Part shown: positions 806-46,269 of the stretch, one piece after another
Position numbering within the stretch: position 1 is the stretch's first letter
How the letters are laid out: the number at the start of each line of letters is the position of its first letter
Notes under the pieces: generated by a model
What the model saw: the letters and a program-made list of their open reading frames with translations, nothing else
Told to the model about the DNA's origin: nothing
Database searches by the model: none
Program-made: the position numbers and the translations under genes
From: Bispira polyomma
Taxonomy: Eukaryota
Assembly: GCA_965649765.1 (NCBI GenBank)
Contig: OZ287752.1
Coordinates: 17,360,001-17,424,000, forward strand
Direction: 5' to 3'
DNA length: 64,000 nt

Positions 806-1114
806 TTTCTCCAGTAGATGTGAGTTCATCAATACAGAAGATCACATATACAGAAATAAATAAAAAGGCTTTGCTAAACTGTACAGTGAGGGCTTATCCA
901 GCAGTCACGTCTGATTATGTGGATGTCAGGTTTAAAGGTTCTAAAATACCTGCTAACAGTATACAGGTGGAAGCGGTGGAGGATAATTTGGATGAGACTC
1001 TGATAGAACTGACCTTTGACCCTGTAACAGTTGAGGACTTTGGTCTGTATCAAGTTGTACTGAATAATGGCGTAGGAGATGAAGTGGTGATTGAACTGAA
1101 CTTGAGTGAACCAG
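806..1114 (+). CDS. Gene A exon: membrane-proximal Ig-like domain
   Basis: tttag| acceptor; LLNCTVRAYP...EDFGLYQVVLNNGVG; paralog of 24112-24420. Confidence 0.85.
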
Positions 1115-14689: not shown

Positions 14690-16520
14690 ATACTGTCTTT
14701 TCATTTGAGTTCAGTGACAGAGTAGCCATATTTACACTTCTACACAAGTTAGAGGTACTTCCTGTTTCCATAAGTTTCGCACATAGGTTTATACAGGATT
14801 TTTGATATATTGAATCTAAATATATTCATTCATTTAAAAAATGATATTTGATAGGAATGGCTTTATATAGCCCGTCCACTTGGTAGTTGAGATAAATGAT
14901 TGGTAAAGTTATCTACTGTGAAGTAAGCGTGATAAGCTATTGGGCTAAATTTATTTTATGGAAGTCAGTAATGAGATTTCTGTTTGAGTATTTATTTTAT
15001 ATACATGTTAGTATATGTATACAGGTTAACAATTTGTAAAATAAATGTTTAAAATTTTTTAAATATTAAGCCCCAATAGGGAACTAACACCAACTGACAT
15101 AATCCGCAAACAACATAGGACCAGCCAATTAATAGTTTAGGACTAGCCTGTACATAATAATACATACAAAACCATAATATTTAAAAAGTGTGTTTTACTC
15201 TCATGTTATTTAAACCTCGATAAGTGGATACAATTAAAACTCTAAAATACACGAACGAATAATTATGTCATAAATGGTCTTTTTATTACCACACAAAATA
15301 CATACATTTCCACCATAAACCATGTTTTTCAAGTATACTAACATAATTAGTGCAAAGTGCAAATCATAGCTTGCACCCATTTTATTCTTTACTTGCTTAA
15401 ATTTTTGCTCTGAAACTTTCAGAACAGTCCAAAGTTAGGGTCCTGTCGGTTATGGTTTTGAACTTGTCTTTGGTTTATTATGTGTTGCACTTCAGAAAAT
15501 GCATACCATCAGTCATGTTAAATATACATTACACAATTAAATGTGAACTTTTCTGTCGCTAGTTCTGATTACTAACAGCACATAACCAGAATGTACACTA
15601 CAATAATAATAATACAAAAATGGAATGTAATAACAACAACCTAGTGAATGTCTATAAAATCTAAACAAGAACATTAAAGTCTTTTAACAGTAAATTCAGT
15701 ATACAAGTACATTATAAGGCAAGTTATAATATCTGGTGACAGTGGGAAGAGAAATAAAAGAGGAAAGAAGAAAATGCCGGAAACGTTGCAGACATGATTA
15801 TAAGAAGATGTAGTGGTGAATCCAATTGTTTTACATTCCACAATGGCCCTTTTCATTAAAACGTGTAGGTTTAGCATCATTAAGAAATAACAACCATCTT
15901 AATGAAAATGTCCAATAGAGCCCTCACAAAACAGAGGCCCACTATCTTTATTGATATATTTATGTTTGTTTTAAACGTTGTGAATCTTTGTCCTGAAATG
16001 CTCTCCTGTGTGTACAATGTATTTTTATACACACAATGACAAATGCTTTCCAATGTATCTATTTAAGTTTTATTCTAAGTTGCATTCATTCAAGAATAAT
16101 TTTAACACTTGATAACTCACGAAAACACACATAATTAAATATCAGTATGGCTAAGACTTTGTGAGTGACAAGTAAACATGTACACTTTTGTAAACAGTCT
16201 GTCCAGATTATTATCTAGCTATTGATATTATATATTATGCAGGCCAACAAAGGACAAGGAAGTTATTTACACATGACGTATTTCAGCGAATAGCTAAACT
16301 AAGTACTGATAGTACTGGTGAAAAATTTTATAATATCTTAAATGTTCAAATTTGTTTAATGTGGACATGTTTGTAATCATGGGATTCTACGTAAATATCT
16401 GTCTATCTATTGTTCGGATTGTCACCTTATTTTGTATGTGTTTTATGCATATCTTTGGATATTGAGATTATCTAAAAATAATTGTCAGTGTACTATAGAA
16501 AATTATCACAATATATTATA
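14690..16520 (+). repeat. Upstream region of gene B, segmentally duplicated at ~39635-40817
   Basis: Many colinear shared blocks, e.g. gtacttcctgttt, aaaatgcataccatca, agagccctcacaaaaca, gaatagctaaactaagtactga. Confidence 0.9.
14905..15320. repeat. Interspersed repeat with an inverted copy at ~29815-30240
   Basis: Reverse-complement matches such as aaacctcgataagtggataca/tgtatccacttatcgaggttt and actagcctgtacataat/attatgtacaggctagt; absent from the 39.6-kb paralog. Confidence 0.8.
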
Positions 16521-17221: not shown

Positions 17222-17602
17222 CTGTATTTGATGTGGGTAATACAGAAGTGACCCAAGTGTCCTACACCACATCCTACCCAGCTGACAGTGGTTACTACAT
17301 ACTGGATGGAGAACAGCTGACACTGGACTGTGTGTTTACAGGAACACTGACCTCACTGGTGTGGTGGACACTAAAGGGAAGTAATGAGCAAATCATACTA
17401 GTTTCTCCTAACAGAGAGGATAACATACCTGACAGTGAGTACAAATCCAGGATAGAAGACTCTACACTGACATCAACTTCTCATCAGTTGGTGATTAGAG
17501 TCAACAAACAACAGGATGAGGAGCAGGAGTTCAGGTGTCGTGTTGTCAAGGAGGATAATATATTTGGATCTGAGAAAGACAGACAACTTGGAGACATTTT
17601 AG
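17222..17602 (+). CDS. Gene B exon: N-terminal V-like Ig domain
   Basis: GEQLTLDC..LVWW..SRI..HQLVI..DEEQEFRC. Confidence 0.9.
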
Positions 17603-20600
17603 GTGAGTTGTGCTATTATGTATTTAGATGTATGTACCTTTTTAATGAGTGAGTCTAGCCAGGACAGGCTCACTCATTGATGTTATACTGCAGATTTGGT
17701 GTTGTGACAGCATTTTTTTGAAATTGGCCCAAAAATTTAACTTCATACTTACTAGGTATCGTTTTTAATTCTTGGGATAATGCAATCAATTTGTTTTCTA
17801 AATAAAGAAACTATAATAATGGTTTTAAAAACAATGACCTGGGTTGACATGAGTTTGACTTATATAGTCACATACTTCACTTTCTAGCCTTGAAAATGGC
17901 TCTATTTATAAAAAGGTCCTATATATGCGAAAAATCAATAAAAATCTGTCTCAGGATCTCTGATACAACTGGAGTGGTACACACTAAAGGGAAGTAATAA
18001 ACTACTCTTAGTTGTGCGTCCTAACACAGAGGATCAAATATTTGACACTGAGTCCAGAATAGAAGACTCTACACTGACATCAACATCTAACCAGTTGGTG
18101 ATTACAGTCAACAAACAACAGGATGAGGAGCAGGAGTTCAGGTGTCGTGTTGTCACTGAGAGGAATATCTTTGGATCAAATAAAGAAAAACAACTGGGCA
18201 AAATTTTAGGTCAGTTATGAAAGGGTTCGATTTTACAACAGGTTGGATATTTTTTAATACACACTTTAACAAATTATAACTACTCTTAGTTGATTAATAT
18301 AGAAATTAAAAAAAAAATACGCCTGTTTAATGTTCATTTTCAACAATTGATTGGGTGGGTTTAGTTTTAATTCACTCCCAGAGATAATTTAAAATGCACA
18401 TAAAACACTCGTTTAAGTATTTTATTTCTATTCTAAAATGATAAACCATTAGCTTTGAATACAATGACACAATGATTACATAAAATGTGTGACTATTATG
18501 AAGACGGTTCCATGTTGTGGCTGTTTCATTGTATAAACATATCACAGCTGAAGTTGAAAAACAAAAGCATTGAAAAATACAAAAATAATGCTGATTATTT
18601 ATTAAAACTACTTACTTTACTAGAGGTAAAACATCATAAAAATCAGTTGAGAAATAGCTTTAATATTTAACAGTTGATATATTTAAGTTTAAATATGGAA
18701 TAGTGTGTCAAGGGAGATTGACGGAACAGCATAAACAACCTATTATGCATTATACTGGGTGTTTTATGCAAATTTAAAACATTGTGCAAAGATGTGTGTT
18801 TTTCTATTGCTCAGCCTACCATTTTAGAATGAGCTTTAAATATAAATTCGTTATCTGCTTCAGTCATTGTTATCAGTACATTTATGTATTTAAATATTAT
18901 AAGAAACAAAAATAGTTTGGGGACATTTATTTTCCAGTGCCATCATCCTCTGTGACACTAGAAGGTCTAGATGTTGTAATAGAAGGTGTACAACAGACCA
19001 TAGAGTGTGAGGTGAACTCAGTTTACAGAGGTCAGGAGGTGACAGAGTTTGGTGTAAAGGTAGGAGAGTCTACACTGACATCTGGTACAAAGACACAGAC
19101 TACAGGGTCAGTGAGTGGGACTTATACTGTAAAGTATAGACAGACTTCAACATTTACCTACAGTGAACACCAGGGTCAACAGGTACAGTGTGAGGTCAAA
19201 TGGATGGAAGGGACAAGTGTAGAGACAGTGAAAACATCTACAGTTGAGACACTTTATATTTATGGTATGTAAATAAAATGTAAAATGATTATTATAATAG
19301 TATTTATACAAAACATTCAGTATATAATTTGCATAATTAGTAGTTGTAAACTAAAGTGTGTGAATAAGGTGTCTCAATAAGGTGTTTGTATCCCAGTTTC
19401 ACATGCCTTTTTTATATTTTGTACATATTATTGTTATGTTTGCTCTTAGTTCGAGCCACAGATGTAACTTTAGATATATCTGACAGTCCAGTACTAGAAG
19501 ACACTCCACTGACCTTCACATGTACCACCTCTAGTATCCCCTTACCCAGACTAAGACTGTACAGACAGAGGGAGGGTCAGTCTGCCACTGTGGTAAAGTC
19601 TGTCACTGATTTGACACTGAGCTGGACTAACAGTATGGAGTCAGCAGACAACAAAGCCGAGTTTTACTGTAGAGTGGATGACAATAAGGACATTGCAGGC
19701 TGGGACTTTCATGTACAGTCAGAGAAACAGGAGATTACTGTGTGGTGTAGGCAATATTTTATTTTGTTTTAGTTCTTAAGCATTTCTTTCTGGGGATAAT
19801 ATACAGACATGTATTTGATTTTTGATTATTGTGCAATAATTCAATACTTTGTTCCTATATTGGAAGTTATTGGGCTTTCAGATTTTCAATTTTAAGTAAT
19901 ATGTGCAAATTTCAGGGAAATATTACTTTTTCAGAATTTTCACAAAATTAAACTGTAGTTCAACCTTGTGCACTGAAAATACTTTATTATTGCTTCAACT
20001 TCAGAGACGCTTTGTTTTGTTTTTCAAAATCAATTTTCTAGTTTTTTGACATTTGCAAATATGTTTTAAGTTTATGAGGTAAAGTTAAACAATCTTAGAA
20101 CTAAACTTATTTATTTTATTTTAGTTTAGTTCTGAGGCATTTATCAATATTTGATACTGCTGACATTATAAGTTGGTGTTGGTTGTTTTTCTTTTAGTTA
20201 AACCTTCCTTGAAATTTAATGCCAACACAAGCCCCAACCCCACAGAAGGAGATATCCGACAGATAGAGTGTATCTCTACATCAGCAAACCCAGAACCTGT
20301 ACTGACTCTGTACAGAGGAGATGTGGAGGTGAAGTCAGTGACAGGGAGAGAACTCAGTTATGGTGTGGAGATAACAAGAGAGATCAATGGTGTGATATAT
20401 AAGTGTACAGCTACTACATCTGATACCCGGAGTTATGACTATAAAGTGTTGTCTGGTGGCAAATATTACACTGTACTATGTGAGTTCCATACATACTTGT
20501 TAATTTGGTTGTCATTGGATTTGTTTTTGCTCTTTCTGTTTCAGAAATAAATTGAGGAGCAATAATTTTAAGAAAATATTCCATTTTGAAAGCCTAATTT

Positions 20601-23600
20601 ATTTCAAAATATCGAAGACAAAATTCACTTCTATTTCAACTGTGTAACTTTTTAAGTCCATTAATAAACTATGTTTAAAGTATCCTGACTTGGATGTTTT
20701 GAACCATCCCGAAAAGTTAAAATGTTCATGCAGAAAGAATATATAACATTTTTTGTGAATATTTAGTAACTATATATGACAAACAAAAATATCTGATATT
20801 TAAATAGTACTTGTCGTATTGTATATGTTGTTGTTTTATACTATATGTACAAACATCTTCTCATGTGTGAATTTTTTTTGCAAAATTTAAAAATTATGCG
20901 AATATTCATTTTAGTTGAATCCATGGAATTAATAATAATCGGTGCTCCCACAGAGTTGTTAGAAGAGGACAATGATATAACAGTGATGTGTAGAACAGAT
21001 GAAGGTAATCCAACACCTACAGTGAGGTGGTATAAAGATGGTCAGACTGTACCTGTAGATACTGCCCTGAAGTCTGTGACTGATAAGGAGATTGATGGTC
21101 AGTACATGGCTAAATATGTGGAGAGTACACTGAAGATACAGACTAGACGTACATTGAATGGAAGGGAATATAGTTGTATGGTGGAAGGTACCAGCCTGGA
21201 AAGGAAATTTACACTTGGAGTAAAGTGTAAGTTACATTTGTTCTATGTTGCTGTTTTATATGAAAATTGTAGCATATATAAAAATATATGAATCAATTTC
21301 ATTGCATTTAAAAATGACGTAAGGTGACAGTGCTTACTTTATAAAAACTCAATTGCTGTGCATATATATTTACAAAAATATAGGTTTTCAAATCTGTATT
21401 TCTTTTGATTCAGGTCTGTGGTAAATATCTACCACTTACACATGCAGTTTTATCACCAAATGCAGAATATATTTTGATATCATGCACATAGTCAAATGTG
21501 TATTGATCAATGCAAATACTAATTCTATATACAAAATTGAAATGAAATTGTGAGACGAGTTAACTGCTTAGAAGAGTTTTTGCATCTTTTATTGTGAATC
21601 AGAAATATTGCTATATAGCATGTGATTCTGATAAACTGGGAATCACACATTTTGAAGGGATCTAAGCATTTTAACACTACCAATTTGATATATTATGTCA
21701 TTTATGTCAAATATGACTGGCTGCTTATGTCTATCATATTGGTGTTGCAGCCCAAAAGGTTTGATAAATTATCATGAAATTAACATAAAATGGGCACAAT
21801 AGTGGATCTACAACTAATAAGGTTATATTCTTCACCATATTAATAATTAGGTTTTATATTTTTCGTTAAAATTATTATTACTGATCCAACCCCTTGATGA
21901 AACGATTCATCTAAACAATCTTAATTTCATTAACTTTTTAAACAAATTGACAGGTTTTCACTTTGTTTAACATTGACAGGAATGATGAAGCTTAAAAAGA
22001 TGTATACATCGTGTCAAAAAAGTTCTTCCCATAATATTTAATAAGGAAATATCCATTAAATCTTGACCTTACAAGATCCTGGTATTGATTAAAAGTGTTA
22101 TATATGGGGCAAATTCCCGACCGCTATAATAAACAGTGTACTTCTTTAGTACACATACACTGGCGCCTGTTGTTTGAATTGAGTGTAACTGAAACTGAAT
22201 TCTTACAAATGTCTTTATTATTTTCATTTAGGTCAGGTTCATCTCAAGCCATTATTTTCCTGCCACTAAACGTTTTCTTGCTGGTTAAAATTAAAGCTCA
22301 GCAGCTCATGTTTTACTTAGTGGCTGTAATTCAGACTGTGCTCTAGTAATTGCACAAACATAATGGTTTTAACAAATAGTAATATGTTAAGTTACATTGT
22401 TTCACAACACACTTATATATAAAACCTCAAACTGCAAAATAGCGACCCAAACAAGGACACAAGTTTGCATGGATATTTATAATATAAGTACTAGCATTAT
22501 AATAGTAAGTACTGTGTATGTTTATCATTAAGTTTATCAAATTTTTCATGTGCTGTTCTTTTATTTGTTAACCATTGGATGAATCTTTTTCATATGTCAT
22601 GTTATATACCTTTGTATTTCATGGACATGATATATACCACTTGCAATTATGTACCTAGTTATTTTCCCAATTTTTCATTGGTTGTTATACTAAGAGATGT
22701 CTGCTCTAATTACTTGTGACGGCAATAAAACAGTTTTGAAGCTAAAATATTTATGTTTGACAGAACTAGGCTGTCATTGATATGAAGACTGTGTGTAGTT
22801 TTACGATGCTAATACTCATCATTGATTGTTATGTCTAAATAGTTTGCATAGGGGTAAATACCAGCAATCGACATATGATCAGATTTCTTACATGCTTGTT
22901 TATTTTGACTCACAAATACACAGTCCAGCAGTGACGTTTTTTTTTTTGTAATTTACTAACGGTATGTAAAAAAACTACCAACTAGCGATCAGATGTTAAT
23001 GTTTTTGCTGGCATGTTATTATGTACAAAACATCTGATCATCATAGAATATAGAAACTGGTCAGTCATTGTCTGATAGTAATTAAAAGTAAATATCAGAA
23101 TTAGCATATCTGCATTATAAATACTTGATTTTAATTTATCTAATCAACAATGTATATATAAAAAAACGTCTGTATCAAACATTTAATATATTTTAACTTT
23201 TTAATGAATCGCTATAATTCAAACTACTTCAGGAAAATAATTTACGTGTAACCAGTTTATACAAACTTAAAATAAAATTGTAAGAATACCAAAGTACCAT
23301 GACTGTTGTATCGTGTCTGAACTAAGCTTATAATATAAAACAATTTATCCTCATAGTTATAATATGTTTCTTGCTTTTTCTATAAATACTGGATACCATA
23401 TGTTTAAACATGATGATTTATCAACTAGAACTGTGCGACTAATATTTTATTTACACAAACTCCATGTTTTATTACAATGGGAAATATAAGATATATATAT
23501 CTTTATAAATTGACTTTTGTTATTTCAGTTTCACATGATGTTGCAGTCATCCAGAGTCCCTCAGATTCTGTGTCAGAAGGTTCAAGTCTGTCCTTGACCT

Positions 23601-26600
23601 GTGAAGCTACAGGAGGTAACCCACCTGAGGTGTTGTCTTATAGCTGGAGTTTTGTACCTCGGTATGAAGAGAGCAGTGATCCGAGTAGTGACACAGACAT
23701 AGAGTTACAGTTTGACAGTGTAGAGTACAGACAGGCTGGGGTGTACAGATGTGAGGTAACTAATGAGGGAGGTGTGAACAATGACAGCGTAGAACTGTTT
23801 GTGCAATGTGAGTAATATAATCATGTAAATATAGTACAATATGACATTGGAGAGTACACACAGGTTTAAATATATATTGGATGTTTTGTATAATATTCAT
23901 TAAATTACAACAATAATGCACATAAGCAAAAAATACAAATTATTGCCAATGTAACAGTTGCGACAATGGTTATATCGCAAAGGCATTAACTTCTTTATGT
24001 TTATAACATACAATATATGATAGAACTCGTGTGCCATATTAGTAATATTTCTGTAGTGTGTCTTCTACTTGAGAAACTTTATGTATTGTTTGTTAAAATT
24101 GTTCCTGTCAGTTTCCCCAGTAGATGTGAGTTCTTCCTTACAGAAGACTGCATATGCAGAAGTAAACATAAAGACTTTACTAAGCTGTACAGTGAGGGCT
24201 TATCCAGCAGTCACTGCTGATCATGTGGATATCATATTTGAAGGTTCTAAAATACCTGCTAATACTATACATGTGGAAGCAGTGGAGGATAAAGTGGATG
24301 AGACTCTTATAGAACTGACATTTGACCCTGTAACATCTGAGGACTTTGGTCTGTATCACGTTGTACTGAATAATGGTGTAGGGGACGAAATTATGGTTGA
24401 ACTAAGCTTGAGCGAACGAGGTGAGTAATCATTTTAAAGTTACAGAAAAAGTTTTTGATTAGGATCAATTATTAGTATAAATGATACATTTTATGTACAT
24501 ATTTGAGAAAGATACTACATATTAGAACACTACTGCTATCGATGATGGAAAAAAATTTCAACAACACTTATAAAAAGGCTTTGTTGTCTAGTAATTTAGT
24601 ATATATTCAGTTATTATACTTTACAGTGTAATTAAACAATTAACCATTGTTAATATATCAAATGTTCTTTGCTTTGTGAGGCTTTATTAGTTGGAGTTAT
24701 AACCTAAAAACTAAGAATATTGCACAAACTAAATCTGGGTAAACACTAGTTAGAGGAGGTCACTTTCAGTTAAGATGTCCATAATGACAAGTACAGAAAC
24801 ATTGTAGGGTATTATTTATTCGATACTTTACTTTGGAGATTAGCACCGACTTGGCATACAATATCTGGGTTATATCTCAAGTAGCATGAGATGTTTGTTG
24901 TAACAATTATCTCTAAAATGGTATAGCTCAAAATAAGGCAGAGCATTAATATTATCAATAATATTAGTTAGTTACTTCACATTTATTGATTAACTATTCA
25001 ATTACATATACATGTTTTTAGGTGTACCAGAAGCACCACATTCTTTGGTATTTGAGTCAGTAACTGCCATATCAGTAACCCTCTCTTGGATTTCTGGTCA
25101 GAGTCGTGGTGTAGAACAAACCTTTACAGTGTATTACAGACATCAAGGGGACACCAAAATACTATATCATGATGAAATCCGGACCATTGAAAATAAGAAA
25201 ATAAATGTATACAAAGTCTCAAGTTTATTACCTAATACTGAGTATTTCTTTAGAGTTAAAGCACAAAACCAATATGGAGAAAGTGAGCATCAACCTGAGA
25301 TATCAGTTACAACTTTAGGTACCTGCATTTGTTAAATTATACCACCATTATTACTTAATAAATACATATATTTGTCCAATGAGCTTTACAATTCATATGT
25401 ATTCTCCATGTTGTTTTTGTACAGTAATAATATACAATATTATGGTATATATGTACATGACATAGGCAGCAATTCGAACTTCTAAATACAAAAGTTTATA
25501 ATTATATATGCGGCATTGTGGGTAACACTTGTCCCTAGTAATGCACAGGTCCTAGTTTCAGTCCCAACTGCGTTCTTTAATGTATAGATAGGTACCACAT
25601 AAAATTGCGGTTCTCTGCCGTTTACTTCTGTCCTTAGTGGCAGATAAAAAACCTTGGGGATGTTGATGTTTTCATTCTCAAGTTTCTGTCTTCAGTTAGT
25701 AAAATGATGGTTGGCTGTAGTTGAGTAGATAATGACAGATAAATGAATTAACTATACATAGAAATCAAATACAAATTATCCCTCAAATATATCATTTACC
25801 ATATTTTTAGAGTTATATTTTCTAATATTTATGCTAGGATTACCATCAATGAAAGGGATATTGGAGGCACACCTATATAAAGAAATTGTGGTCTTGTACT
25901 GGGGACACATAGATGGGAATTACACAAGAGCTGCTTTATTGAAGTGTAACAATGGACGACAAAATTGCTTTTTAGTTTACAACATTACTGATGTCATTGT
26001 TACAATTTTTACAGTCTACACTGTATATGATGGAGAAGAGTACTATCTTGTAATATATCAGGATAATGATGAAGTAATAGCCCAAAAGTTTACCATGACA
26101 GACAAAGGTAAATTTAACTGTAAAAAACATGTTTGTCATACAGAAATATGGATACCATAACTTCTTCACTATAAACTGCATAATTTGTATAAATGTTCGA
26201 AGTTTAATTTTTCTCTTTGTAGCACCTTCTGCAGATATCATTAAAGAAAAAGACACTGGACTGATAGCGGCACTTGTAGTTACATCTACAATGGTTGGTG
26301 TACTTGCAGTTGCCCTAATTATACAGATTATTTGCCACAAAATGAGACTGAGGCATAATGATGACAATAACAATGGGTTTTCTGTAAGTAATAACAAGCA
26401 CAACACTATAATTAACAGACTCATATCATTCACAATCAGTAAGTGTTAATTGGTTACAGTTACTTCTGGTAACATGTTTATATTTTGTTGTGATATATTT
26501 TACAGAATCAAGGTCCAACAACATATGAAAATGTACCATCTACACATAAAATCAGCAACTATGAAATGACAAAACCAGAAGAACAAACACCAACGGCTGA

Positions 26601-26804
26601 ATATACAGATTTGAAGGTATGACCATCACATAATTGATACAAGAAAAATAATAACACCCAAATAGTATAACTGACAGAGAACAGATTTTTTTGAGTTGTT
26701 TAAACTTAATTATTTAAATGTTATTTTTTTTTCAGATATAAAATGTGTACTAAATGTGTACAATATTATTATTTCAGCAAGTGACATATGAAACCATTAA
26801 CTGA
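17222..26804 (+). CDS. Gene B: nephrin-like architecture IgSF receptor (7 Ig + FN3 + FN3-like + TM + ITSM/ITIM tail), ~1017 aa plus an unresolved leader; exons 17222-17602, 18938-19264, 19450-19746, 20198-20479, 20915-21226, 23529-23807, 24112-24420, 25022-25318, 25838-26107, 26223-26383, 26506-26616, 26778-26804
   Basis: All exons are open with canonical AG/GT; ectodomain exons are phase 1-1 with lengths divisible by 3; Ig C..W..C signatures. Confidence 0.9.
17955..18209 (+). pseudogene. 5'-truncated duplicate of the V exon (orphan half-V segment)
   Basis: Near-identical SRIEDSTLTSTS.QLVI.VNKQQDEEQEFRCRVV; lacks the first Cys strand; donor tttag|gtcagt retained. Confidence 0.85.
18938..19264 (+). 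CDS. Gene B Ig domain 2 exon
   Basis: IEGVQQTIEC...HQGQQVQC; canonical sites. Confidence 0.9.
19450..19746 (+). CDS. Gene B Ig domain 3 exon
   Basis: EDTPLTFTC..SIPLP..DNKAEFYC. Confidence 0.9.
20198..20479 (+). CDS. Gene B Ig domain 4 exon
   Basis: IECISTSANPEP..INGVIYKC. Confidence 0.9.
20915..21226 (+). CDS. Gene B Ig domain 5 exon (C2/CD80-like)
   Basis: VMCRTDEGNPTPTVRWY..LNGREYSC. Confidence 0.9.
23529..23807 (+). CDS. Gene B Ig domain 6 exon (I-set-like)
   Basis: EGSSLSLTCEATGGNP..YSW..QAGVYRCEVTN. Confidence 0.9.
24112..24420 (+). CDS. Gene B Ig domain 7 exon
   Basis: LLSCTVRAYP..EDFGLYHVVL; gtcag| and |gtgagt. Confidence 0.9.
25022..25318 (+). CDS. Gene B FN3 exon
   Basis: SVTLSW..LLPNTEYFFRVKAQN. 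Confidence 0.9.
25838..26107 (+). CDS. Gene B FN3-like or juxtamembrane domain exon
   Basis: Paralog of 8366-8635, same length. Confidence 0.85.
26223..26383 (+). CDS. Gene B transmembrane exon
   Basis: GLIAALVVTSTMVGVLAVALIIQIIC-HKMR. Confidence 0.9.
26506..26616 (+). CDS. Gene B cytoplasmic exon
   Basis: NQGPTTYENVPSTHKISNYEMTKPEEQTPTAEYTDLK. Confidence 0.85.
26778..26804 (+). CDS. Gene B terminal coding exon (QVTYETIN*)
   Basis: tttcag| acceptor; in frame with the preceding phase-0 donor. Confidence 0.75.
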   Translation, partial: QVTYETIN

Positions 26805-29179
26805 AGAATTGCTGCTTCAAATATGGATATCCCAAAGCATAACAGAGACATATATAGCAATAATATCAATGACTTGAGAAATGTTTTTATGGTAAAATAT
26901 TGCACAACCTTAACAAATACTTGTACTTTGTCTTCTGTATTCCCTAGTTATAGACCACATTGTACCATATATATACTTCACTAATCTTTTTATTTAATAT
27001 TCATTTCAGTATATCATAATATAAATACTTTTTTGGTATCATCTTGAAATTCAGAGAATATTTTACTTGCAAGGCTAAATCATTTTATCCTGTAACATCA
27101 AGCCCATCGTTAGAGCTGCATTTATGTGTATTCTATCACTTAAATAAATCACTTTCATGAAAACTCAACAGCCGATTATTCTTGGGGAAAATAGGTGTAC
27201 TCATCATTTGCAATATGCAGTGGAACAAATAAATAGTGAAGTAATTTTCGAACTCTTTAAGTCTTAGAATTGACTGGTACCAAACCTGAGTGACATAATC
27301 ATTGTGTAATTCACAAATAACCAACTGAAGTCAATCAAGCCATCTCAATCATCATGCCAAACTTAATTACATCTTATGGTAGCAAAAACAAAGGACATGC
27401 ATGCTAAAAAACATTTATCACATTTTGCATTTCTTGAAATATATGGCAAACAGTAGGGTTATAAATGACTATTACAAGCAGTTGGTCTTACCGATGTGTC
27501 TGATGTTATGTATACCAATGTTTCTTGGTTTGCATTATACTGCAAAGCTTATACAGCAGGATATAACCCATGTTTTTCGATTTGCATTATACTGCAAAAT
27601 CTATACTACATATAATAACTTGTATATTGCACCTTCTTTTCAAACAATGTGCGTTACATATGGTAGGTATCTTTTGTAAAATGAAGGAATTGCCTGTTAC
27701 TGACAACGTTTGTAACATTTTCTGACTAAATGCACTTTTGCAGGATTGGATAATCATTTGGTTGCCTAGAAACATGTTTGCATCATTGCAGATTTTGCTG
27801 ATGTTGTCATTAAATAAGATTTTAGTTCTGCTGTTTAGGGCTCCCACTTAATAGTTATTCTTTGTGGATTGTACTTCGTGGATAAAGTTGTATAACACTA
27901 ACCTGTCTGGCAGGTACAGCTCTTGGTGCCTTAAATCAGCATAAGTTACTAATGTTGGCTGAGTATAATAAACTTAACAGCTTTTGTATTGTAGTTTTAA
28001 TTAAATTAGTGCACCCAATCTTTTTGAACTGAAACATATTGAGTAAACACTTTGTCTATAAAGGCCATTTGCTAGCTCACATTTGGTCGACGTTTATATC
28101 CATATATTAAAGAGCCATTTTCCTATTAAATTCAATATCAGATGATATCAGAATTGTACTGGCCTAACTCTTTAAATAATCTAATCTCAGGATCATAATA
28201 TATTCAGCTATAATGCATGGTGTAAAGCTTTAGCTAAATTTACACATAATTTAGCCATCACTGACCGAAACCATTCTAAGGTTTGCCTGGCTTGAATCTT
28301 CGACTGCTATTAAATCCAACTATTGATGTCTGATACAGTAGGAAGACATTAGCTTATTGGCATAGTGATTAAAATGCATGTAAAAGGAAACTGGCTTTGA
28401 AATGAAATGTTTATAGTAAATTCTACCATTAAATAAAACTACAAGTTTCTAAATAAGTAAAACAATAAAGACACAAAACAGCATTGGTATATGTTAAAAG
28501 TTTCAATTAAGATTGCATTACATTAGTGGACATACCAGTGCCCAGTTATGACTGATATAAGTCATAATTATAATAAAAAAATTTAAGGGGCATAAAATTA
28601 TGATTAAATAAAAAATACACGTTGTGTGAACAACACTAAAAGTCCCATAAATAATTGCAATACAAAGTTTTTGAGTTATGACTTTACATATGACTTCTCA
28701 TGTAATGCTGTTACTAATGTATACACAAGCCCTTATATCTGTAAACGTGCTCCATGAATTAATTTATAGTGAGATTTTTAAGAGGACATTTTGATGCGTG
28801 TTTGCACAACAGGCCCCTTTAGGGCACTGATAGTTCAATCCACACCTTAAAGTTTATATACTTTACAACCTTAAATTTAGCTTTATCTGCACACCCCCAA
28901 AAATATGTATCAACCCTCAGCCAATCACAGCCCACACACATGCAGCTTAAGCTTCACTTTACAAACTCCATATTGAAATGGCCATTTTAAACTTCGATTT
29001 CATCAAGAAAACGAGTAGAAAATATTTGAAACCCACCACCTCCCCTAATCACAGCACATTGCTAGACTGGTGATCAATATTTTGTGATGATTGGATTTGG
29101 AGTAAGAATATATATGTGTTTCTATGTCTTAACTTACTTAGGTAATACTTTCCCTTAGGAAACTGGTTAGTGGATAAAC

Positions 29180-29565
29180 GACAGGTTCGAACCTGGGTTG
29201 TGTGGAGGGACTATTCTGTTCTTAATGTTCCCCTAGCTAGCCAGGTCATATAATGCAATTACAGAGGATGCCATGACTGACAGAATCGTCCTTCTGCTAG
29301 GTGGTTGATGCCATAGCCATCGGGTTCTTAACCTGTTTGACATTCTAATGCTTTGTATTTCTTTGTGACAGAATTATGGCCCAAATAGTTTCCAAAAAGA
29401 AACTTGGCGTCAAGGCTCAGGGCGAATTCGAGCCTGGTGCTGTGTGAAGGCGGGGTCCTGTTTCTTATCCCACCCCTGGGTCATATAATGCTTCACCAGG
29501 AGAAGGCATGACCGACAGGACTCCCCCTTTGCTAGGCGGCTGGTGCCACAGGCCACAGGTTCTAA
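29180..29565. repeat. Two diverged ~150-bp direct repeats with internal stems (SINE-like or structured RNA)
   Basis: Shared ctgtttctta..ggtcatataatgc..catgac.gacag..tgctagg.gg.tg.tgcca. Confidence 0.65.
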
Positions 29566-29814
29566 TTTTAGCGTCATAATTTTTGTCGTCATAATATTGT
29601 GAATATGATTACTGTGAAAAGTTAATAGACTAACAAAATTTTCAAACGTTTGAAATAATAATATTTAGAAGTATTTAGATTAAATTGGAAGTGAAATAGT
29701 AATTTTAACTGTTCTGAAAGTTTCAGAACTAAGTACCAAGCAAAGGAGACACACTGGCATAAGCTACTATATGCACTAGTTATGTTAGCATATTTGAAAA
29801 ACACAGTTTATTGG

Positions 29815-30240
29815 CAGTTTATGATGGAAGTGTATGTACTTTGTGTGGTAATAACGAGACCATTTATGATAGAATTATTTGTTCAAGTATTTTATTGTTT
29901 TTAATTGTGTATCCACTTATCGAGGTTTAAAATAACGAAGGGTAAAATATACTTTTTAAATGTTATTGTTTTATGTGTATCATTATGTACAGGCTAGTAC
30001 TATGTTAATTGATTGGCTAGTCCTATGTTGCTCTAGGGTTATTCCCCTTTGTGTTAGTTCCGATATTGGGGCTTAGTTTTTTTTTAAATTTTAAACATTT
30101 ATTTTACAAATTGTTAGCATGTATATATATACTAACATGTATATAAAAATGAACAGCTCAATTAGAAATCTGATCACTGACTTCCACAAAAATAATTTGG
30201 GCCAATAACTTATCTTACTGACTTCCACAGAAAATAACTG
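29815..30240. repeat. Inverted copy of the 14905-15320 interspersed repeat
   Basis: Reverse-complement similarity along its length. Confidence 0.8.
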
Positions 30241-31402
30241 CATGACACAACACGGTTTATTATAATAAACAGGTTTGTTACTTAAATTAATTAAACAAAA
30301 TAACTAAATAGGTTAATTAACTGTGCCACACAAACGACCCAGTAGTAAAATGACCGAGTGTTTCAAGTGGCCTTTCAGATCCAACCCAAACTCCTTGTCA
30401 CTGATGATGATAAAAAGGCCTACTCACTTAAGTACTAGTGGTACTGTTAATTCCAATACTACAACCACATCTGGCCGATTTCTGCAAACTTCTGTGAACT
30501 GTCTGGCAGGTGAACTAGAATAGTAGCTTAACTACACATTTACATCATTCTTAAAGGGGCACTGATTGTCCTTGAAAAGTTTGATATGTTTTCAATAACC
30601 CAGGTTGCTACCGTATGTCTTTTGAAGCCTTCCACTCAGTTGTCCCTTTATAAATCCACTTTTCGTTAAATTTCAGTGACGTTTAAATGTCTAGTGACCA
30701 CACAGGTAGAAATTAAATATACTATTATTATTAACCATGTGTGTATTTATATGAAATTTCAAGTATGGTCAGAGCCTCTCCTTAGTTTTGACCTTGACAA
30801 TAAAAAAACACTGAGCTTAAGGGTATTAGTTTATTTCTTTTATATTAATATATAAAATATGTATGTATAGACTAACTAAAATAAATGAAGGGGCACCCTA
30901 AGGCTACCTTAACTTCATCGTTTGTTTAAATTTTAGTTTGGGCTCAAGTTTCTGTTAGACTTGAGATAAGGTGTACCTAATTTAAATGTGGGTTAAGTTT
31001 AAGTTACATTTAAGTTACTGAAACATTGTTACGTGGTTATAATTATTTTTAAACGGCAAATATGAAACCCCACAGCCCAACTAGGAAGTAGAAGGTGAAG
31101 TGAGAATGTATTATACTTAAAAATGGATAAAGGCAATGTAATAGATAAATGTACTACTTATTTCAACAATACTTGAGTTTAACACGGTGTATTTATTTTC
31201 TTAGTATACCTATATATACCTCCTCTATATGTGTAACAAAATGTATAGTGTCAAATATTTGTATAATGCCTAAGTGTGTTTCAATGAGGAAATGTTTCTG
31301 TAAACACCAGAAATAAAATGTTACTTTATTAATATAGACATATATAAATCAAATGTATACAGATATAAGAACATACTCATAGGATATATTCTGTGAACCA
31401 AT

Positions 31403-31457
31403 ATGGAAAGGATACTTGTTATAACAATAATGATGTGTGTTTTATGCCTGTGTGTGG
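31403..31457 (+). CDS. Gene C signal-peptide exon
   Basis: Hydrophobic 18-aa leader, phase-1 donor g|gtaagt. Confidence 0.85.
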
Positions 31458-31812
31458 GTAAGTACTCTTTTTATACTATGAATATTCTGTTAAGGCTAAA
31501 TATTGTTAGTGGAGAGGCTAAATGGTTAATGGTACATAACTTAATCAATGGTACTGTATTTTATGATTTCTATGTTAACATTTTGCTTCTTAACATAAAA
31601 TATGTAACTGCATTCACTTAATAAGCAACAAGAGTATAATATTCAATATACTGAATAAACCCGATATTTTTGGTCTTACTTATGTTTCTTGAAAAACTTT
31701 GCATTTAAAATTTTTGCAGAAAGAGACACACCTGCAACATCTATTGACCTAAATAATGATATCATACATAAACATTAGTTATAGAAATAAAGTAATCTGC
31801 ATTTTGTTTCAG

Positions 31813-32142
31813 CTACCACGTGTCCTAATTCAGGCAATGCATATGACAAAGAAGAGTTTGCAGAGGCTGGAGGTTCAGTAAGTTTACAGTGTGGCTCACT
31901 CGGTGAGGATACTATTGTAATCTGGTACTACAAAGGAATATCAGTCATTGTTGGCCACAACCTTGAGAGTGACACTGGACCTGTGTATCCTGATGAAGAC
32001 AACTACCCCAGGTCAAAGTACAGCTATAGTGAAGTGGATTACTCACTGACTATACACAATGTGGGATTGGAGGACCTGGATTGTTTTAAGTGTACAACAA
32101 ATCCATCTAACAGGCAAATTACCACTCTGGTTACACTTATAG
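31813..32142 (+). CDS. Gene C V-set Ig exon (open)
   Basis: GGSVSLQC..IVIWYY..YSLTIHNVGLEDLDCFKC. Confidence 0.85.
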
Positions 32143-32844
32143 GTATGTATGCAGCACCAAACTATGTAATGATTACAAAATTCAATAGATTTATTTATTA
32201 TGTGTGTTCTACAGAAATTAGGAGAGTAAAACATCTAGAAAATGTGTTTTGTCCACGTCTATGCTGTTGCTTTAGAGGTTATATTGCCTGTCGGGCAATA
32301 AGAAAATTAGTAATCATTCATATTTTACTATGGCTGGTAATTATGTGCTTTAAGGATACTGCTGTCCAACCAGGTTTCTCGTATATGAATATTATGAATC
32401 CAGTAGGAGTGCATAGTCGATATTTGGCCATGAATGGTTTTCAAGTTTGAGCCAAATAATATAATATCCATCCAAGACTTCAGATTAATTGTTCAGATGT
32501 GAATTGACACGAGTTGAGATCACAAAAACAAACTTTTTAACACATACAAGTGTAGGCATAAACAAAGAAAGCTTCCCTTAAATGCATCCACACCATTATC
32601 TGTATCAGGCTTGTAGGTAACTAATAGGTCAAAGTATTTTGCTAAAAATGTAAAATACAGTATAACAGATTGAGGGATTCATGGAAACAAAAATGTTAAA
32701 CTCCTCATGTGCAAAAGAATTTACCCTTTTGGGATCAAATTTATTAATTTAGTTGAACCAAAGTTGTTAAACAAGTAACATTAAAAAATCCCCACCACCT
32801 GGTGTGTAATGCACACAAATACAGCGTTCAAATAGATTGGTTCG

Positions 32845-32990
32845 CGTTTAACAGCTTAGGTTATATCATGAGGGCCAGATTCATTGGTGGAAGAAATCAG
32901 TGTTGGAGCACTGAAAACCACTAGTTTATGACAAATCCCTACCAGTGATAGTTAGGCAGGCAATTCTAACCACTAGGCCTCCACAACCCC
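32845..32990 (-). mobile_element. Degenerate tRNA-derived SINE
   Basis: Reverse complement of ggcctagtggttag head and a catgatataacc..gttaaac tail. Confidence 0.5.
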
Positions 32991-35900
32991 TATGTCTTGG
33001 ATATTTTGTACATGTTATTGCGTTGTTATACCTTTATTACAGCCAAAGCGGCTTGGTATGATGAATCCTCACATGTCTGGCACTATGACCTAGTGTGTAA
33101 TGCACTCATTGGATGTGTATAACTATTCAAACTTATACCATGCATTGTTAGGTCAATCCATCAAAGTTAATTGATTTTGCAATTTTTCTGTAAACCAAAG
33201 AAATATTCACTTAAATGTCTTAATTTTTTTTTCTTATTGTTGGTCATTTATTTTATGTTTAATGACACCACAGATACCAAGCTTCACAGTATTACCCACT
33301 TTTCAAGAGAACACAGATATTTCCGTCCAGTGTAAAGTGTCAACAGTAAAACCAGGGAAGGGAAGTATCCAGTTTACTGTCAGAGTAGTTCCAGACTTTA
33401 GTGTTGAGAGTTCAGACAGTGAGTTGTCAGAAGAAGAGGTAGACTCTAATACAGGAGCTGTGTCAGTGAGTTACACTACAGAGATCAGACTACAGAGAAA
33501 ACACAATGGGCAGGATACAGTGTGTGAACTAGAGTGGAGAGGAGAAACCTTTACTTCTAATACACAACAGGCTAATGTTGAATGTAAGTGGTAAATTAGT
33601 TATATTATGTAGCTAGGTTTTTAAATTAGTAAATATTACTAGTTAATTAAGGAGTGACCTTTGTTCAACAGTAATAGATGGTACTCTGACTTTATGATAC
33701 CATTGTTCTTCAGTGTTTAATTAAATAAATGCTATATCTCTTTCAGTCAAAGCCTATCAATTGGCTATAGATGGTGAACCAACAGACTTAGTAGAAAAGA
33801 ACACAGGTATAACAGTGGTGTGTAGAACAGATGAAGGTAATCCTACACCCACAGTGAGGTGGTACAGAGGTGACCAGACTGTACCTGTAGATACTGACTT
33901 GGAGGTTGTAACTAATATGGAGACTGATGGTTCACTGTACAATGGTAAAGTGAGTGTAAGTACACTTAGTCTACAGGTTGATAGCACTCTAAATGAAAAA
34001 AGTGTATAGATGTAATGTAGAAGATACTAGTTTAAAGGAATAATTTGAACTGGAAGTGGCATGTAAGTTATTATAATTAATTTTAAGTGAATTCAACAGG
34101 TAAATCTAGATGTTTGTGAAAGAAAGATTTGTAACTGTCCCAAATTAATAGTAGGAGAGTGATTAGTTACTATTAAATCACATAAAGATATGAAGCACTA
34201 TATGCTACCGAGGGTATGAAAATGTTAAGACTTGACATTACTGTTTAGGTTCATCAGAGATTGGGGAAGAAGGTCCATTAACATCTTCAATATAGAAATA
34301 TGTTATAACATACATCCTGTTGTTTTATTTTTCATTTTTTTTATCCTTTATGATATCAACAGGATAAGCAAGGTTATCAAAAATAAATAATGTCAGATAG
34401 AACATTTTGTCCTGACTAATAAACAATGCTAAATGAATATATGTTCATTCACTTTGTATTATTTCAAAACTATGTCATCTATATGTTGTTGTTTTTTTTT
34501 GCAGTCGGTTAAGTATTTGAAAAATATAGTATCTGGATGAATTGAAAAAGTGTTTTTACTCAAATAAAATGTGTCAAAACATGATGTAGAAGTTTTTTTA
34601 ACTAACTGAAACTAATTTAATTAAGAAATTTCAATGAAAATAGATATTATTATTATTGCAAAAAATTATCAATGGAAGTTACAATAGTAACCAAGCATAT
34701 TTTTGTTTTCATCTGCCACTTTGGTTTAATGGGTATCACTACACCTCTTCGTCATCAGGTATTTTCACCTACTTTAACTTCAACAACTTCTCTAACACAA
34801 TATGAATGGTATGAGATTGTTATAGATGCAAATAGACTACAATAGACGAATATCATAACATAAAATACACAATGTAGCTACAGAATTATGGAATACTTTT
34901 ATTACCACCATTTACTGACCATCACCTTCTTAGGCATATTAAGGAGGATTGAGAATATATTTATAACTTTTCTCACTATCTCTTTTCAGCGTCACAGTGT
35001 GAATGGTACTTTAATATTGAATATTTAATATTTTTGATTTAAATATTACTGCTCTAGGTAACGGTAAGCTAATACTGTTTTCAGATATTTGTAAGGATGT
35101 TTTAATATACAACATCCTGGATTAACTTCATTCTAACGTTTGATCCTGGAGAAATTACTTTGACCTGAAGTCATTGTCCTCACTGGATCTCAGGAAGTAC
35201 ATGTTACTTTTCAAATTAATACTGTTGGGATATTCTGCCTGATACAATTTTGGCAGATATTTTAAAAATCAAAGAAATACATGCAGAATTCATTGATGTA
35301 ACTACGAATCTACAAGAAGTGTGTCAGCAAAACAAACTATCAGTGTAAATGATTTGCAGTTTGCTCTGATGCAACATATATATTTCTGAGCATAAAATCA
35401 AACTGTTACTATATCTCAGAGGTTGAATATTGTTCAAAAAAGTTCTGATTAAATTATGTTTGTACCAATAGTTAAACAAACACATAAAATGTTCACCAAT
35501 AAACTAAGCTCTGTGTGAAAGAGGTTACTTGGACCTATTCTACTTTACTTTTTTGAAAATATACTTCATTTATCTATTACTTATATTCTTCTAAACAGAA
35601 AGATATATTGCATATTTCATTTTTGTATAATAGGGAAACATAAGTGAGGTGTGCCAGCATTATGTCACAACAGAAAGGCGTTTCTCTTAGGTTTGTTCAC
35701 AATATGACATTCCTCTGTAGATTTGAAATTGTGTGACGTCACGATACAAGAATCGTTGTAGCTCTGTTTTAAACACTGTGGTACATAATATTAAGGTTTG
35801 AAAAAATGCATATAAAATGGTTAAAACCATTTTAAGACTGCCATAGTAAGCATATAGGCTAAACAAAACATTCATCAATGTATTATGAATCTCTGCCGGC

Positions 35901-36399
35901 AGCGAATTTATGTGTTTACATTACTAAAGCCTTAAGTAAAACTTTTTAAAATTTGCAATAATTTGTCATGTTTATGTGTCAAACTAGCTCATATTCATGA
36001 CTTTTTCATTCTCCTTTGTCAGTGTTAAGGTCATGTTATATTAGTCTATTTAAATAATCCTGAACCAACTTTATAATGGCCAATTGTGCATAGTGAGTTA
36101 ACATGTCAAGGGTAATTTCAAAAGTACATCATGTTATAAAGTTGTTTACTATGTCGCAAGTTTCAGCTCGTAGTATCACCATGACCCAGCCTCCCTCTGG
36201 TCCAGTCTCTGAGAACACAGAAGTGACCTACACCTGTGTGACTGATGAGGCTCAACCTACTGCTGATGTGGTGGGGACTGTAGGAGGAAACAGTGATAGT
36301 TCTACTAGTGACACTACAGAGGTGGGGATGTATAACACAGACCAAAGGACAAGTGTGTTAGAGCTGAGGGTGGACACAACAATGAATGACAAGGAACTG

Positions 36400-36670
36400 G
36401 TGTGTTATGTTAGTGGGAAATCGGCAGTGAAAGATACAGTAACACTGGCTGGTACATGTAAGTAATATATTTAAGTTGAGTGTTATGTTAGGGATTTAAC
36501 AGTCACACTGGATCTTAGATGTAAGTAATATATTTAGGTGGTGTTTTATGTTAACTGGACGTTATTTTAGACACTATGATACTAGATAAAAGATGTAAGT
36601 AAAAGATTCAGGTGGAATTTTACATCAGTGAAAGTTTTAAATACTGTATTGTTGAAAGTTACATGTAATA
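36400..36670 (+). repeat. Degenerate tandem copies of the exon 3' end and splice donor
   Basis: gtgttatgttag...acactgg...atgtaagtaatatattt repeated 3-4 times. Confidence 0.7.
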
Positions 36671-37579
36671 GAACAAGCTAAAAAATCATAGCATTTTACT
36701 TTTAGACTTTACAGTTTTTAAATATAGTCCACATTCTTTGATAATCTATTTGGCAGATCAGATGTATGACCTTAGATTAATGTCAACCAGTGGCACTGAG
36801 GGTACATGTCCTGGGCTTTTTGTTCATATTTGGAAAAACATCTTTTGTTTGGTATTATATTAACTTACTGGTGATTCAAGATTTTGTTGAATGAAAATGT
36901 TCTGTATTTACCGAAATGAGCTCAAGTTGATACCCTAAGTTCAAGGTGAATAATGACTAATATACTACGCTGTCAAATAAATTTAATACAGTGTTGAATA
37001 GATGCCCATTGAAGGCAGTATGACAACTTCATGAGAAAGCCTACAGTTTGTGTAACTTCTGCACATTTTCGTTTTAAGATTGATTTTTTCTTACTTTTGA
37101 TTTCATTCATCATTATTACTTTTGTAAGACTATTTGGTGTAGCAAATGATAAAACATCTCTTTGTTTACTTCATTCCCATATCTCATGAAGCTGCATTTT
37201 TCTCATTTAGAATTGTAAACATTTTTCACAGTAGTGCTAATACTTCTGCTTGTATCAAATTGTAGTTCCACATGATGTTGCAGTCATGCAGAGTCCCTCA
37301 GATTCTGTGTCAGGCGGTTCCACTCTGACCTTAACCTGTGAAGCTACAGGAGGTAACCCTGCTAAAGCGTTGTCTTATAGCTGGAGTTTTGTACCTCGAT
37401 ATGAAGGGAGCAGTTAGCTGAGTAGTAACACAGACAGAGAGTTAGAGTTTGACAGTGTAGAGTGAAAACAGGCTGGAGTGTACCGATGTGAGGTGACTAA
37501 TGAAGGAGGTGTGAACAGTGATAGCAGAGAACTACTTGTACAGTGTGAGTAATCTAGTGTATTTAGTTTGGTATTAACA

Positions 37580-37670: not shown

Positions 37671-37974
37671 TAATCTAGTCTTGTGTTTTAAAAGTCATTA
37701 TAGTTCTGATTAACTTGTAGAGTAGATACACTTTGATATAGTGTATAGACGTGATGTTATAAGGAGATAGATTGTGAAAATGGGAGTTACAAAGATCATG
37801 TACACTGTGAAGTTGTATGTTGATGATGTTTTTAATAAAAAGATAGAGTTTGACAATGAGTGTTTCTGATTACATATTATGTATTATTTAAAGCTATTTT
37901 ATGTTTTTCAATTGCAATTTATTTACTACTTCCAGTAGTTATTGTAAATATTTAAAATTGAACAGTATAAAAGT

Positions 37975-39487: not shown

Positions 39488-39634
39488 TAGTGCCATAAAT
39501 ATATATAAAAAGGAATATTTTGTTGTATGATTTAGGAATAAATTTGTACAGATTGTCTGAAATGTTTAAATATTTTAACATTCCCCTTTGGCACACAGAC
39601 ACAATGTATCTCATAAAAAGTTCATTGCAATTAC

Positions 39635-46021: not shown

Positions 46022-46269
46022 TTGACCGACAAGGTTCTGAACTATATCTAATAACTGTACCTAATACCTGCCTTTCCTTTGTCTTCCGTGAAGTCAGCGT
46101 TTTCTTAATACGGCCAATGTCGATTCCTTCACAATATGCACAATATAACACACAATAAAATCAAGTTAAAATAATAAAATCAAATATCTACAGTCCATTT
46201 GTTTCATAAAAATATTTTTCACTTATTGTTGTTCGAAATCTACAGCTTGAATTTTGAATTATTTTTTTT

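Follow-up and report, generated by a model that had tools for sequence, protein, structure and literature searches.

Published work describes several clusters of immunoglobulin (Ig) superfamily (IgSF) genes that are close to the one considered here. Hydractinia Alr, characterized by control of allorecognition and by homophilic binding, is a tandem IgSF cluster in which 12 of 41 loci are pseudogenes. Alr proteins have one to three unusual Ig domains, with six invariant cysteines in the last Ig and the fibronectin type III (FN3)-like folds, and gene pairs such as Alr12A/B, over 90% identical except in domain 1 (64%), are read as products of exon shuffling (Huene et al., 10.1101/2022.03.04.482883). 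The Xenopus FcR-like family XFL comprises at least 75 genes, with combinatorial joining of Ig exon subtypes, birth-and-death evolution and domain shuffling (PMC2413239). Gene conversion among clustered IgSF paralogs is described for the N-domain of primate CEACAM (PMC8860441) and for SIGLEC11/16, where a non-functional copy can be the donor (PMC5701461). Here we analyze a stretch of 64,000 nucleotides (nt) from Bispira polyomma (GCA_965649765.1, contig OZ287752.1, positions 17,360,001 to 17,424,000), referred to as the window and numbered from its first letter, which encodes Ig receptor genes that we call A, B and C. The locus is rather likely to be a tandem IgSF cluster of single-pass receptors under birth-and-death evolution, with gene C as a dead mosaic paralog within it. 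This pattern is already published for Alr, XFL and CEACAM.

The locus shares with Alr, as described in those sources, an invertebrate tandem IgSF cluster with one exon per domain, a V-like head, a tail of ITIM type (immunoreceptor tyrosine-based inhibitory motif), pseudogenes and domain-level mosaicism. A further likeness is a predicted FN3-like membrane-proximal fold, for which the fold match of exon X (see below) falls short of E<=0.001. Unlike Alr proteins, gene B has seven Ig exons, a strongly C2-set Ig5 and two FN3-type domains, and in place of the six-cysteine pattern its Ig7 has one cysteine, its FN3 none and exon X two. Because these two defining features of Alr (domain number and cysteine pattern) fail, gene B is not classed as an Alr gene, although it resembles Alr in its evolution. 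As in XFL, architectures appear to be built by shuffling of Ig exons under birth-and-death evolution; XFL, however, has vertebrate FcR-related domains and paired activating and inhibitory transmembrane types, whereas both transmembrane helices in the window are uncharged. As in CEACAM and SIGLEC11/16, ancestry is exon-specific among clustered IgSF paralogs, but there the ligand-binding N-terminal part is homogenized, whereas here the membrane-proximal exons are similar and the heads are old and divergent. A literature search on architecture and mechanism, with most subscription papers outside its reach, found no description of the A/B/C family, which is weak evidence of novelty, and the available part of a review of invertebrate IgSF (PMC11999971) contains nothing matching the gene B family.

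An intact receptor gene and a decayed paralog

On the + strand, the 3' part of gene A (806-9415) is followed by the complete gene B (16367-26804), by gene C (31403-37544) and by an abortive copy of the gene B 5' region (40178-40816). The features are as follows.

806..9415, + strand: gene A, 3' part only (Ig7, FN3, X, transmembrane, tail); control paralog
16367..16433, + strand: signal-peptide exon of gene B, with an ATG, a hydrophobic stretch and a GT donor in phase 1; its frame continues into the 13-exon open reading frame
17222..17602, + strand: V-like Ig1 exon of gene B, open between AG and GT (Pfam Ig_3, E=4.5e-4)
17952..18209, + strand: intronic copy of part of the gene B V exon, covering its 3' two-thirds (81% nt identity, 62/85 amino acids (aa), synonymous divergence (dS) 0.25)
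18938..19264, + strand: gene B Ig2 exon, open, phase 1-1; top match of C Ig2
19450..19746, + strand: gene B Ig3 exon, no C counterpart
20198..20479, + strand: gene B Ig4 exon, no C counterpart
20915..21226, + strand: gene B Ig5 exon, C2-set (Pfam C2-set_2, E=3.6e-10)
23529..23807, + strand: gene B Ig6 exon (Pfam Ig_3, E=3.2e-12)
24112..24420, + strand: Ig7 exon of gene B with a single cysteine; nothing corresponding after gene C
25022..25318, + strand: gene B FN3 exon, cysteine-free (Pfam fn3, E=6.4e-13)
25838..26107, + strand: gene B exon X, divergent second FN3-like domain by predicted fold, two cysteines
26223..26383, + strand: gene B transmembrane exon, phase 1-0, uncharged helix
26506..26616, + strand: gene B cytoplasmic exon with TTYENV (immunoreceptor tyrosine-based switch motif (ITSM), by what we take to be its consensus), SNYEMT and AEYTDL
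26778..26804, + strand: final coding exon of gene B, containing VTYETI (ITIM consensus) and identical in coding sequence to 9389-9415 of gene A
31403..31457, + strand: gene C signal-peptide exon, no detectable match to that of B
31813..32142, + strand: V-like exon of gene C with an open frame, only weakly related to that of B (Pfam V-set, E=1.8e-3; z=4.2)
33263..33583, + strand: gene C Ig2 exon, frame open, in-phase acceptor AA instead of AG (30/94 aa to B Ig2)
33747..34062, + strand: Ig5 pseudo-exon of gene C (316 nt), shifted in frame at an A-run near 33996-34001 and with TAA at 34041
36161..36457, + strand: extra C2-type exon of gene C, with Gly in place of the core Trp
36458..36622, + strand: two short tandem re-duplications of the extra exon 3' end and donor (blastn 36436-36548 vs 36499-36622, 73%)
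37266..37544, + strand: gene C Ig6 pseudo-exon, last recognizable C exon, stops at 37415 and 37463
37727..37840, + strand: intronic segment on the 3' side of C, found again upstream of Ig7 in gene A (72-173), with weak likeness to Ig6 (local score 72 vs shuffle maximum 48, best elsewhere 49)
40178..40816, + strand: fourth, abortive paralog start, a copy of the gene B 5' region (80% nt to 15859-16522) followed by mobile-element sequence

Gene B is intact. Its 13 exons give 3120 nt of spliced sequence with a sole stop at codon 1040 (a frame of 1039 aa), and all internal junctions are GT-AG. The domain order is signal peptide, V-like Ig1, Ig2-Ig7, FN3, exon X, transmembrane and two cytoplasmic exons.

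Gene C is a pseudogene that is truncated within the window. The Ig5 exon is frameshifted and reaches TAA at 34041 in the post-shift frame, Ig6 contains TAG at 37415 and TGA at 37463, and the first stop of the spliced model is at residue 322. No replacement was evident for the lost Ig2 acceptor: the closest AG, which would start the exon at 33274, breaks the frame, and the in-phase AGs that come next upstream bring in stops. By the pseudogene criterion of Huene et al. (10.1101/2022.03.04.482883), the frameshift and the three stops place gene C among pseudogenes. Searches with Ig7, FN3, X, transmembrane and tail queries (tblastn, hmmsearch, nhmmer) found no match in the 26 kb after 37544; within the window these queries match A and B only. 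A dN/dS of 0.35 between the B and C Ig6 exons suggests that the gene C lineage was under purifying selection until fairly recently.

These results bear on a first-pass annotation of the region, which had read B and C as receptors with swapped N-terminal Ig modules on the same stalk and, probably, the same signalling tail. That annotation had recorded neither the three stops of gene C, nor the Trp to Gly change, nor the lack of downstream exons. The shared tail is contradicted, as transmembrane and cytoplasmic exons are found only in A and B, and the stalk is not the same, as that of C holds an additional exon. Other structural points are confirmed: C has two domains before Ig5, with a 163-nt Ig2-Ig5 intron in which no Ig3 or Ig4 remnant was detected (hmmsearch, nhmmer), and the exon at 36161-36457 is missing from B, where the same two programs found no remnant of it. 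The statement that all exons are phase 1-1 holds for V through X of gene B and for the V, extra and Ig6 exons of gene C, and fails for C Ig5 (316 nt, frameshifted) and C Ig2 (acceptor AA).

Several other features lie within or just after gene C. The frame of the C V exon runs about 100 codons past its donor to a stop (31791-32450), so that a secreted V-only product without splicing would be conceivable in purely formal terms. Downstream of C, six open hydrophobic stretches were considered as transmembrane exons and rejected, having no match to the family transmembrane profile. The segment at 37727-37840 was also rejected as a seventh C Ig exon (Ig6 likeness E=0.13 for the A copy, no nhmmer match for the C copy), and the C intron after Ig6 compared with A 330-805 scored 57, inside the shuffle range. 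Nested short repeats follow at 37912-38953 and could be a trace of the rearrangement by which C was truncated: 37912-37976 is inverted to 38786-38850 (97%), 38346-38454 is direct to 38845-38953 (96%), and 38626-38786 is inverted to 177-329 (80%).

Probable mosaic ancestry of gene C

Both Ig5 exons carry CRTDEGNPTPTVRWY, and the Ig6 exons, each 279 nt as had been reported, are identical at 73/92 aa (79%) and 87% of nt. The high similarity that the first-pass annotation saw in Ig5 as well is correct in position and in the common sequence, but overall only 57/103 aa are identical (55%; 73% of nt), and codons 20-50 (25/31) are the one part where similarity is high. The V and Ig2 exons had been described as similar only at Ig signature residues. 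This is apt for V (28/91 aa, z=4.2, alignment uncertain, no tblastn match) but not for Ig2, where similarity extends beyond the signature (30/94 aa, 32%, z=8.8) and B Ig2 is the best of nine B exons for C Ig2. No match between the signal exons of B and C was detected.

Synonymous divergence is very uneven along the pair. Nei-Gojobori dS between B and C is saturated in V, 1.55 in Ig2, 0.78 in Ig5 and 0.27 in Ig6. Restricted to codons encoding the same amino acid in both genes, synonymous differences are 16/27 in V, 18/29 in Ig2, 17/56 in Ig5 and 12/72 in Ig6, and this heterogeneity is significant (chi-square p=4e-6 over all four, p=4e-5 with V excluded), whereas the three A-B exons tested as a control are homogeneous (p=0.39). 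The head and stalk exons of B and C thus look different in age. Because divergence is unequal among B-C exons and homogeneous in the control, recombination or conversion is favoured over exon loss alone; decay after the death of the gene is not an explanation, because it should raise all exons alike. Within Ig5, B and C agree at 25/31 positions in codons 20-50, versus 21-22/30-31 between either gene and three outside relatives, and at 25/51 in codons 51-103, versus 28-32/51-53. This shift in identity suggests a conversion tract. Intron flanks are homologous in 9/10 A-B tests, 1/8 B-C tests and 0/4 for B-C Ig5/Ig6, a pattern that fits exon-limited exchange tracts, although the argument is soft.

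A number of observations weigh against a recombinational origin. The Ig5 breakpoint permutation is marginal and inconsistent in position (p=0.046 at synonymous sites, with a break after codon 70, vs p=0.074 with outgroups, after codon 49), and in the Ig5 tree a B+C clade is neither supported nor rejected (approximately unbiased test, p-AU 0.36). Compared with each other, Ig5 and Ig6 do not differ significantly in synonymous divergence (p=0.09, or p=0.25 at fourfold sites), and fourfold sites also give weak results for Ig2 against Ig6 (p=0.037) and for V against Ig6 (p=0.11). The V and Ig2 alignments are near saturation, and A-B dS by itself spans 0.18-0.69 (Ig7 0.29, FN3 0.38, X 0.69, transmembrane 0.55, cytoplasmic 0.18). 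The recent V duplicate also lacks flank homology (0/2), which weakens the flank argument, and C has the intronic segment at 37727-37840 in common with A. The relatives retrieved are single Ig5 and extra exons without linked exons, which means that support for a mosaic comes from divergence and not from family-wide trees.

The extra exon of gene C was placed using a profile built from it, B Ig5 and the open part of C Ig5, searched against public assemblies (ENA records). In-phase AG acceptors occur at 36161 and 36167, and relatives beginning VSAS favour 36161. From 63 candidates 16 were retrieved, 13 of extra type and three of Ig5 type, and a tree splits the two classes with support of 95/90. 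The 13 extra-type relatives are all open, 62-74% identical to the extra exon and 71-91% among themselves; the three Ig5-type relatives are 58-63% identical to B and C Ig5. The extra exon itself is 27-31% identical to Ig5. The 13 are distributed over contigs of seven different lengths, with four of them at one and the same length. All 13 extra-type relatives keep the core Trp that is Gly in gene C. As judged from these matches, the extra exon did not originate in C but is an old module, related to Ig5 and present in many copies. Given such an old class with many copies, its absence from B is exon gain or loss, whether loss from B or gain in the C lineage.

A plausible course of events begins with C signal, V and Ig2 exons derived from an old lineage distinct from that of B. 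C Ig6 and the first half of Ig5 are about as close to B as the stalk exons of gene A. The likely mechanism is ectopic homologous recombination between adjacent paralogs, by unequal crossover, conversion tracts or both. Symmetric phase 1-1 exons would permit in-frame loss, duplication or exchange of whole domains, and misalignment of paralogs would be easiest at conserved membrane-proximal exons, so that an old head can come to sit on a stalk that is young by comparison with the neighbouring gene. Whole-exon gain, loss and local duplication would have acted alongside (Ig3/Ig4 in B only, the extra exon in C only), and local duplication is visible in the window at 17952-18209 (V) and 36458-36622 (extra exon 3' end). 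Afterwards C would have lost everything beyond Ig6 and acquired the frameshift, three stops and broken acceptor. Many recombination products may die in this way, as C and the copy at 40178 would have done.

A history without recombination has some appeal, and we regard it as possible though rather unlikely. In it, a single longer ancestor (V, Ig2, Ig3, Ig4, Ig5, extra, Ig6 and so on) gave rise to both genes, Ig3/Ig4 disappeared from C and the extra exon from B, and evolution was simply faster in the outer domains. The 13 open relatives of the extra exon make it plausible that B lost it, C Ig2 and B Ig2 are homologues by position in a collinear exon order, the scarcity of B-C intron homology (1/8 flank tests) suits an old duplication, and Ig5-Ig6 heterogeneity is not significant. 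What counts against it is the range of synonymous divergence, from 0.17 in Ig6 to about 0.6 in V and Ig2 (p=4e-6), at sites that protein selection should barely touch, together with the lack of a match between the signal exons. Simple exon loss, against which the first-pass annotation had set its proposal of shuffling, thus holds in part, as the absence of the extra exon from B may be gain or loss of an old class, but loss alone does not produce the synonymous heterogeneity. The contrast between a B-C dS of 0.27 in Ig6 and 1.76 in the 3' half of Ig5 could also mean that gene C never was one working gene, and that two decayed fragments, signal-V-Ig2-Ig5 from one paralog and extra-Ig6 from an A-like one, were joined by deletion across the 2.1 kb gap at 34063-36160. 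The match of sequence after C Ig6 to the region upstream of gene A Ig7 would suit such a join, as would the other fragments in the cluster (17952-18209, 40178-40816). Nevertheless, the C exons lie in collinear order on a single strand, and the profiles tried found no terminal-exon or second signal-exon remnant in the gap; we give this history little credence.

A working gene C, with a different head, the same stalk and signalling tail, lesions due to assembly error and a tail beyond the window, is highly improbable. The frameshift does lie in an A-run, a common site of long-read error, and open frames with canonical splice sites are seen in the signal, V and extra exons. However, two C exons contain three stops of substitution type between them, one acceptor reads AA and a core Trp is lost, and no downstream exon follows in 26 kb, compared with an Ig6-Ig7 intron of only 304 nt in B. 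A single lesion might be an assembly error, but six of different kinds plus truncation are unlikely to be, because the neighbouring gene B is error-free over 3120 coding nt. A layout like that of sDscam, with variable heads spliced to common constant exons, was rejected: B owns a full stalk, and C sits downstream of the B tail. We therefore prefer, as the more probable account, that gene C is a recently dead paralog of mixed ancestry in a birth-and-death cluster, made mosaic by recombination or conversion whose occurrence and direction we infer. Exon shuffling or unequal crossover, as first proposed, survives as an account of ancestry, which is likely mosaic, but not as the origin of a functional receptor pair. 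Gene C is a relic of ordinary receptor-family shuffling, not one half of a working swapped pair, and should be labelled a pseudogene in annotation rather than modelled as a receptor.

Gene B and exon X

The gene B tail contains four tyrosines and no activation motif (ITAM). The ITIM pattern applied is the one used in the Alr paper (10.1101/2022.03.04.482883), which describes ITIM/ITAM tails; ITIM and ITSM consensus patterns are short and may occur by chance. Judging from its motifs, the tail probably recruits SH2 phosphatases for inhibitory-type signalling. The ITIM/ITSM-bearing member typical of paired receptors of the KIR, LILR and XFL type is thus present as gene B (VTYETI, TTYENV), and no activating partner was seen within the window, where the A and B helices are uncharged and B lacks an ITAM. 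The last cytoplasmic exon of B has two candidate acceptors, 26736 (AG at 26735) and 26778, of which the upstream one ends the tail before the ITIM-consensus motif. Gene A has the same layout (about 9352 and 9389), and alternative splicing of the inhibitory motif is possible. Gene B is most plausibly a cell-surface recognition or adhesion receptor with inhibitory-type signalling.

Nephrin, SYG-2 and Sidestep-type receptors combine a V-like head, a run of C2-set domains, FN3 and a tyrosine-rich tail. The likeness of gene B to them consists of this layout and of generic single-domain Ig matches. Gene B Ig5 matches SYG-2 (E=1.5e-10) in sixth place, behind Robo, neurofascin and Dscam among others, and, in Atlas, a 'Nephrin-like' cluster (rank 6, score 0.94), the Atlas look-alikes of Ig5 coming from mixed taxa. 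Unlike single-copy nephrin, the gene B family is multicopy with fast turnover and has a second FN3-like domain. Gene B Ig6 searched against longer proteins gave 0/127 candidates at E<=1e-5, and no full-length relative was obtained for comparison of architecture.

Exon X has no Pfam match. A profile search identified 11 proteins at E<=0.001, ten of them single-exon-sized and 27-43% identical; the eleventh (637 aa, partial match) was excluded from the alignment of 12 sequences used for modelling. The resulting AlphaFold2 model has a predicted local distance difference test score (pLDDT) of 89.7 and supersedes one from two sequences (pLDDT 64, Foldseek uninformative). With it, the top Foldseek rows are mostly FN3 domains (best E=1.5e-3, none at E<=0.001). 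Because the model is confident and FN3 domains dominate these rows, exon X is probably a divergent second FN3. Exon X (25838-26107 in B, 8366-8635 in A) appears to represent a small Pfam-less FN3-like family with invariant W, G, two C, YQ and F, and is usable as a marker for locating members of the receptor family. An Atlas search with it gave only leads scoring below 0.9.

The surrounding cluster and its significance

Base composition in the window is AT-rich (36% GC) and CpG is depleted (observed/expected 0.27, computed in gene B); introns are GT-AG, and retroelements are present. Genes A and B are 72-78% identical in aa sequence in Ig7, FN3, X and the cytoplasmic exon and 44% in the transmembrane exon. 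The gene A Ig7 donor is GC (GCTAGT, 1114-1120), where gene B has GTGAGT; gene A may be poorly spliced or in decay. No acceptor was found for the V duplicate at 17952-18209. In the abortive copy at 40178-40816 the signal exon is frameshifted and contains a stop.

A near-intact DIRS-type retroelement lies in the gene A FN3-X intron (2564-8130, + strand), with a 688-aa open frame encoding reverse transcriptase (Pfam RVT_1, E=2e-8) and split direct repeats (2564-2781/7293-7510, 98%; 7106-7292/7944-8130, 100%), in a layout that we take to be that of PAT/Ngaro elements. Its open frame at 6411-7097, which has no Pfam match, presumably encodes a tyrosine recombinase, going by motif. The identity of the repeats suggests recent insertion. 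A search with the retroelement reverse transcriptase gave at least 120 matches, the best of those listed at 52%. A second, more decayed element of this type (40817-46100, - strand, 65-71% nt to the first) starts exactly at the end of the abortive gene B copy. A 165-aa open frame without Pfam match, 1.5 kb beyond the last exon of C (39068-39565, - strand), presumably resembles the C-terminal part of a LINE (long interspersed nuclear element) reverse transcriptase. An inverted repeat pair of about 530 nt upstream of B and C (14907-15428 vs 29708-30239, 78%) is probably a non-autonomous transposon, and a tandem repeat occupies 63135-63344, with a 50-nt offset between copies (93%) and shorter internal units.

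It is conceivable, as a tentative extension, that these genes belong to a large invertebrate ITIM/ITSM Ig-FN3 family with combinatorial germline diversity, in which ancient swappable signal-V-Ig2 heads and a high-copy C2 spacer exon, varying in number, would be recombined onto a homogenized stalk and pseudogenes like C would serve as head donors. If true, this would be a second invertebrate Alr-like recognition system on a different scaffold, and invertebrate clusters of inhibitory-type Ig receptors are little described outside Hydractinia. As it stands, the B-C pair is a local record of turnover in an Ig receptor cluster, a process documented in several animals. It would carry greater weight if the family proves large, polymorphic and recombining, and gene B would then be a concrete candidate for self or pathogen recognition.

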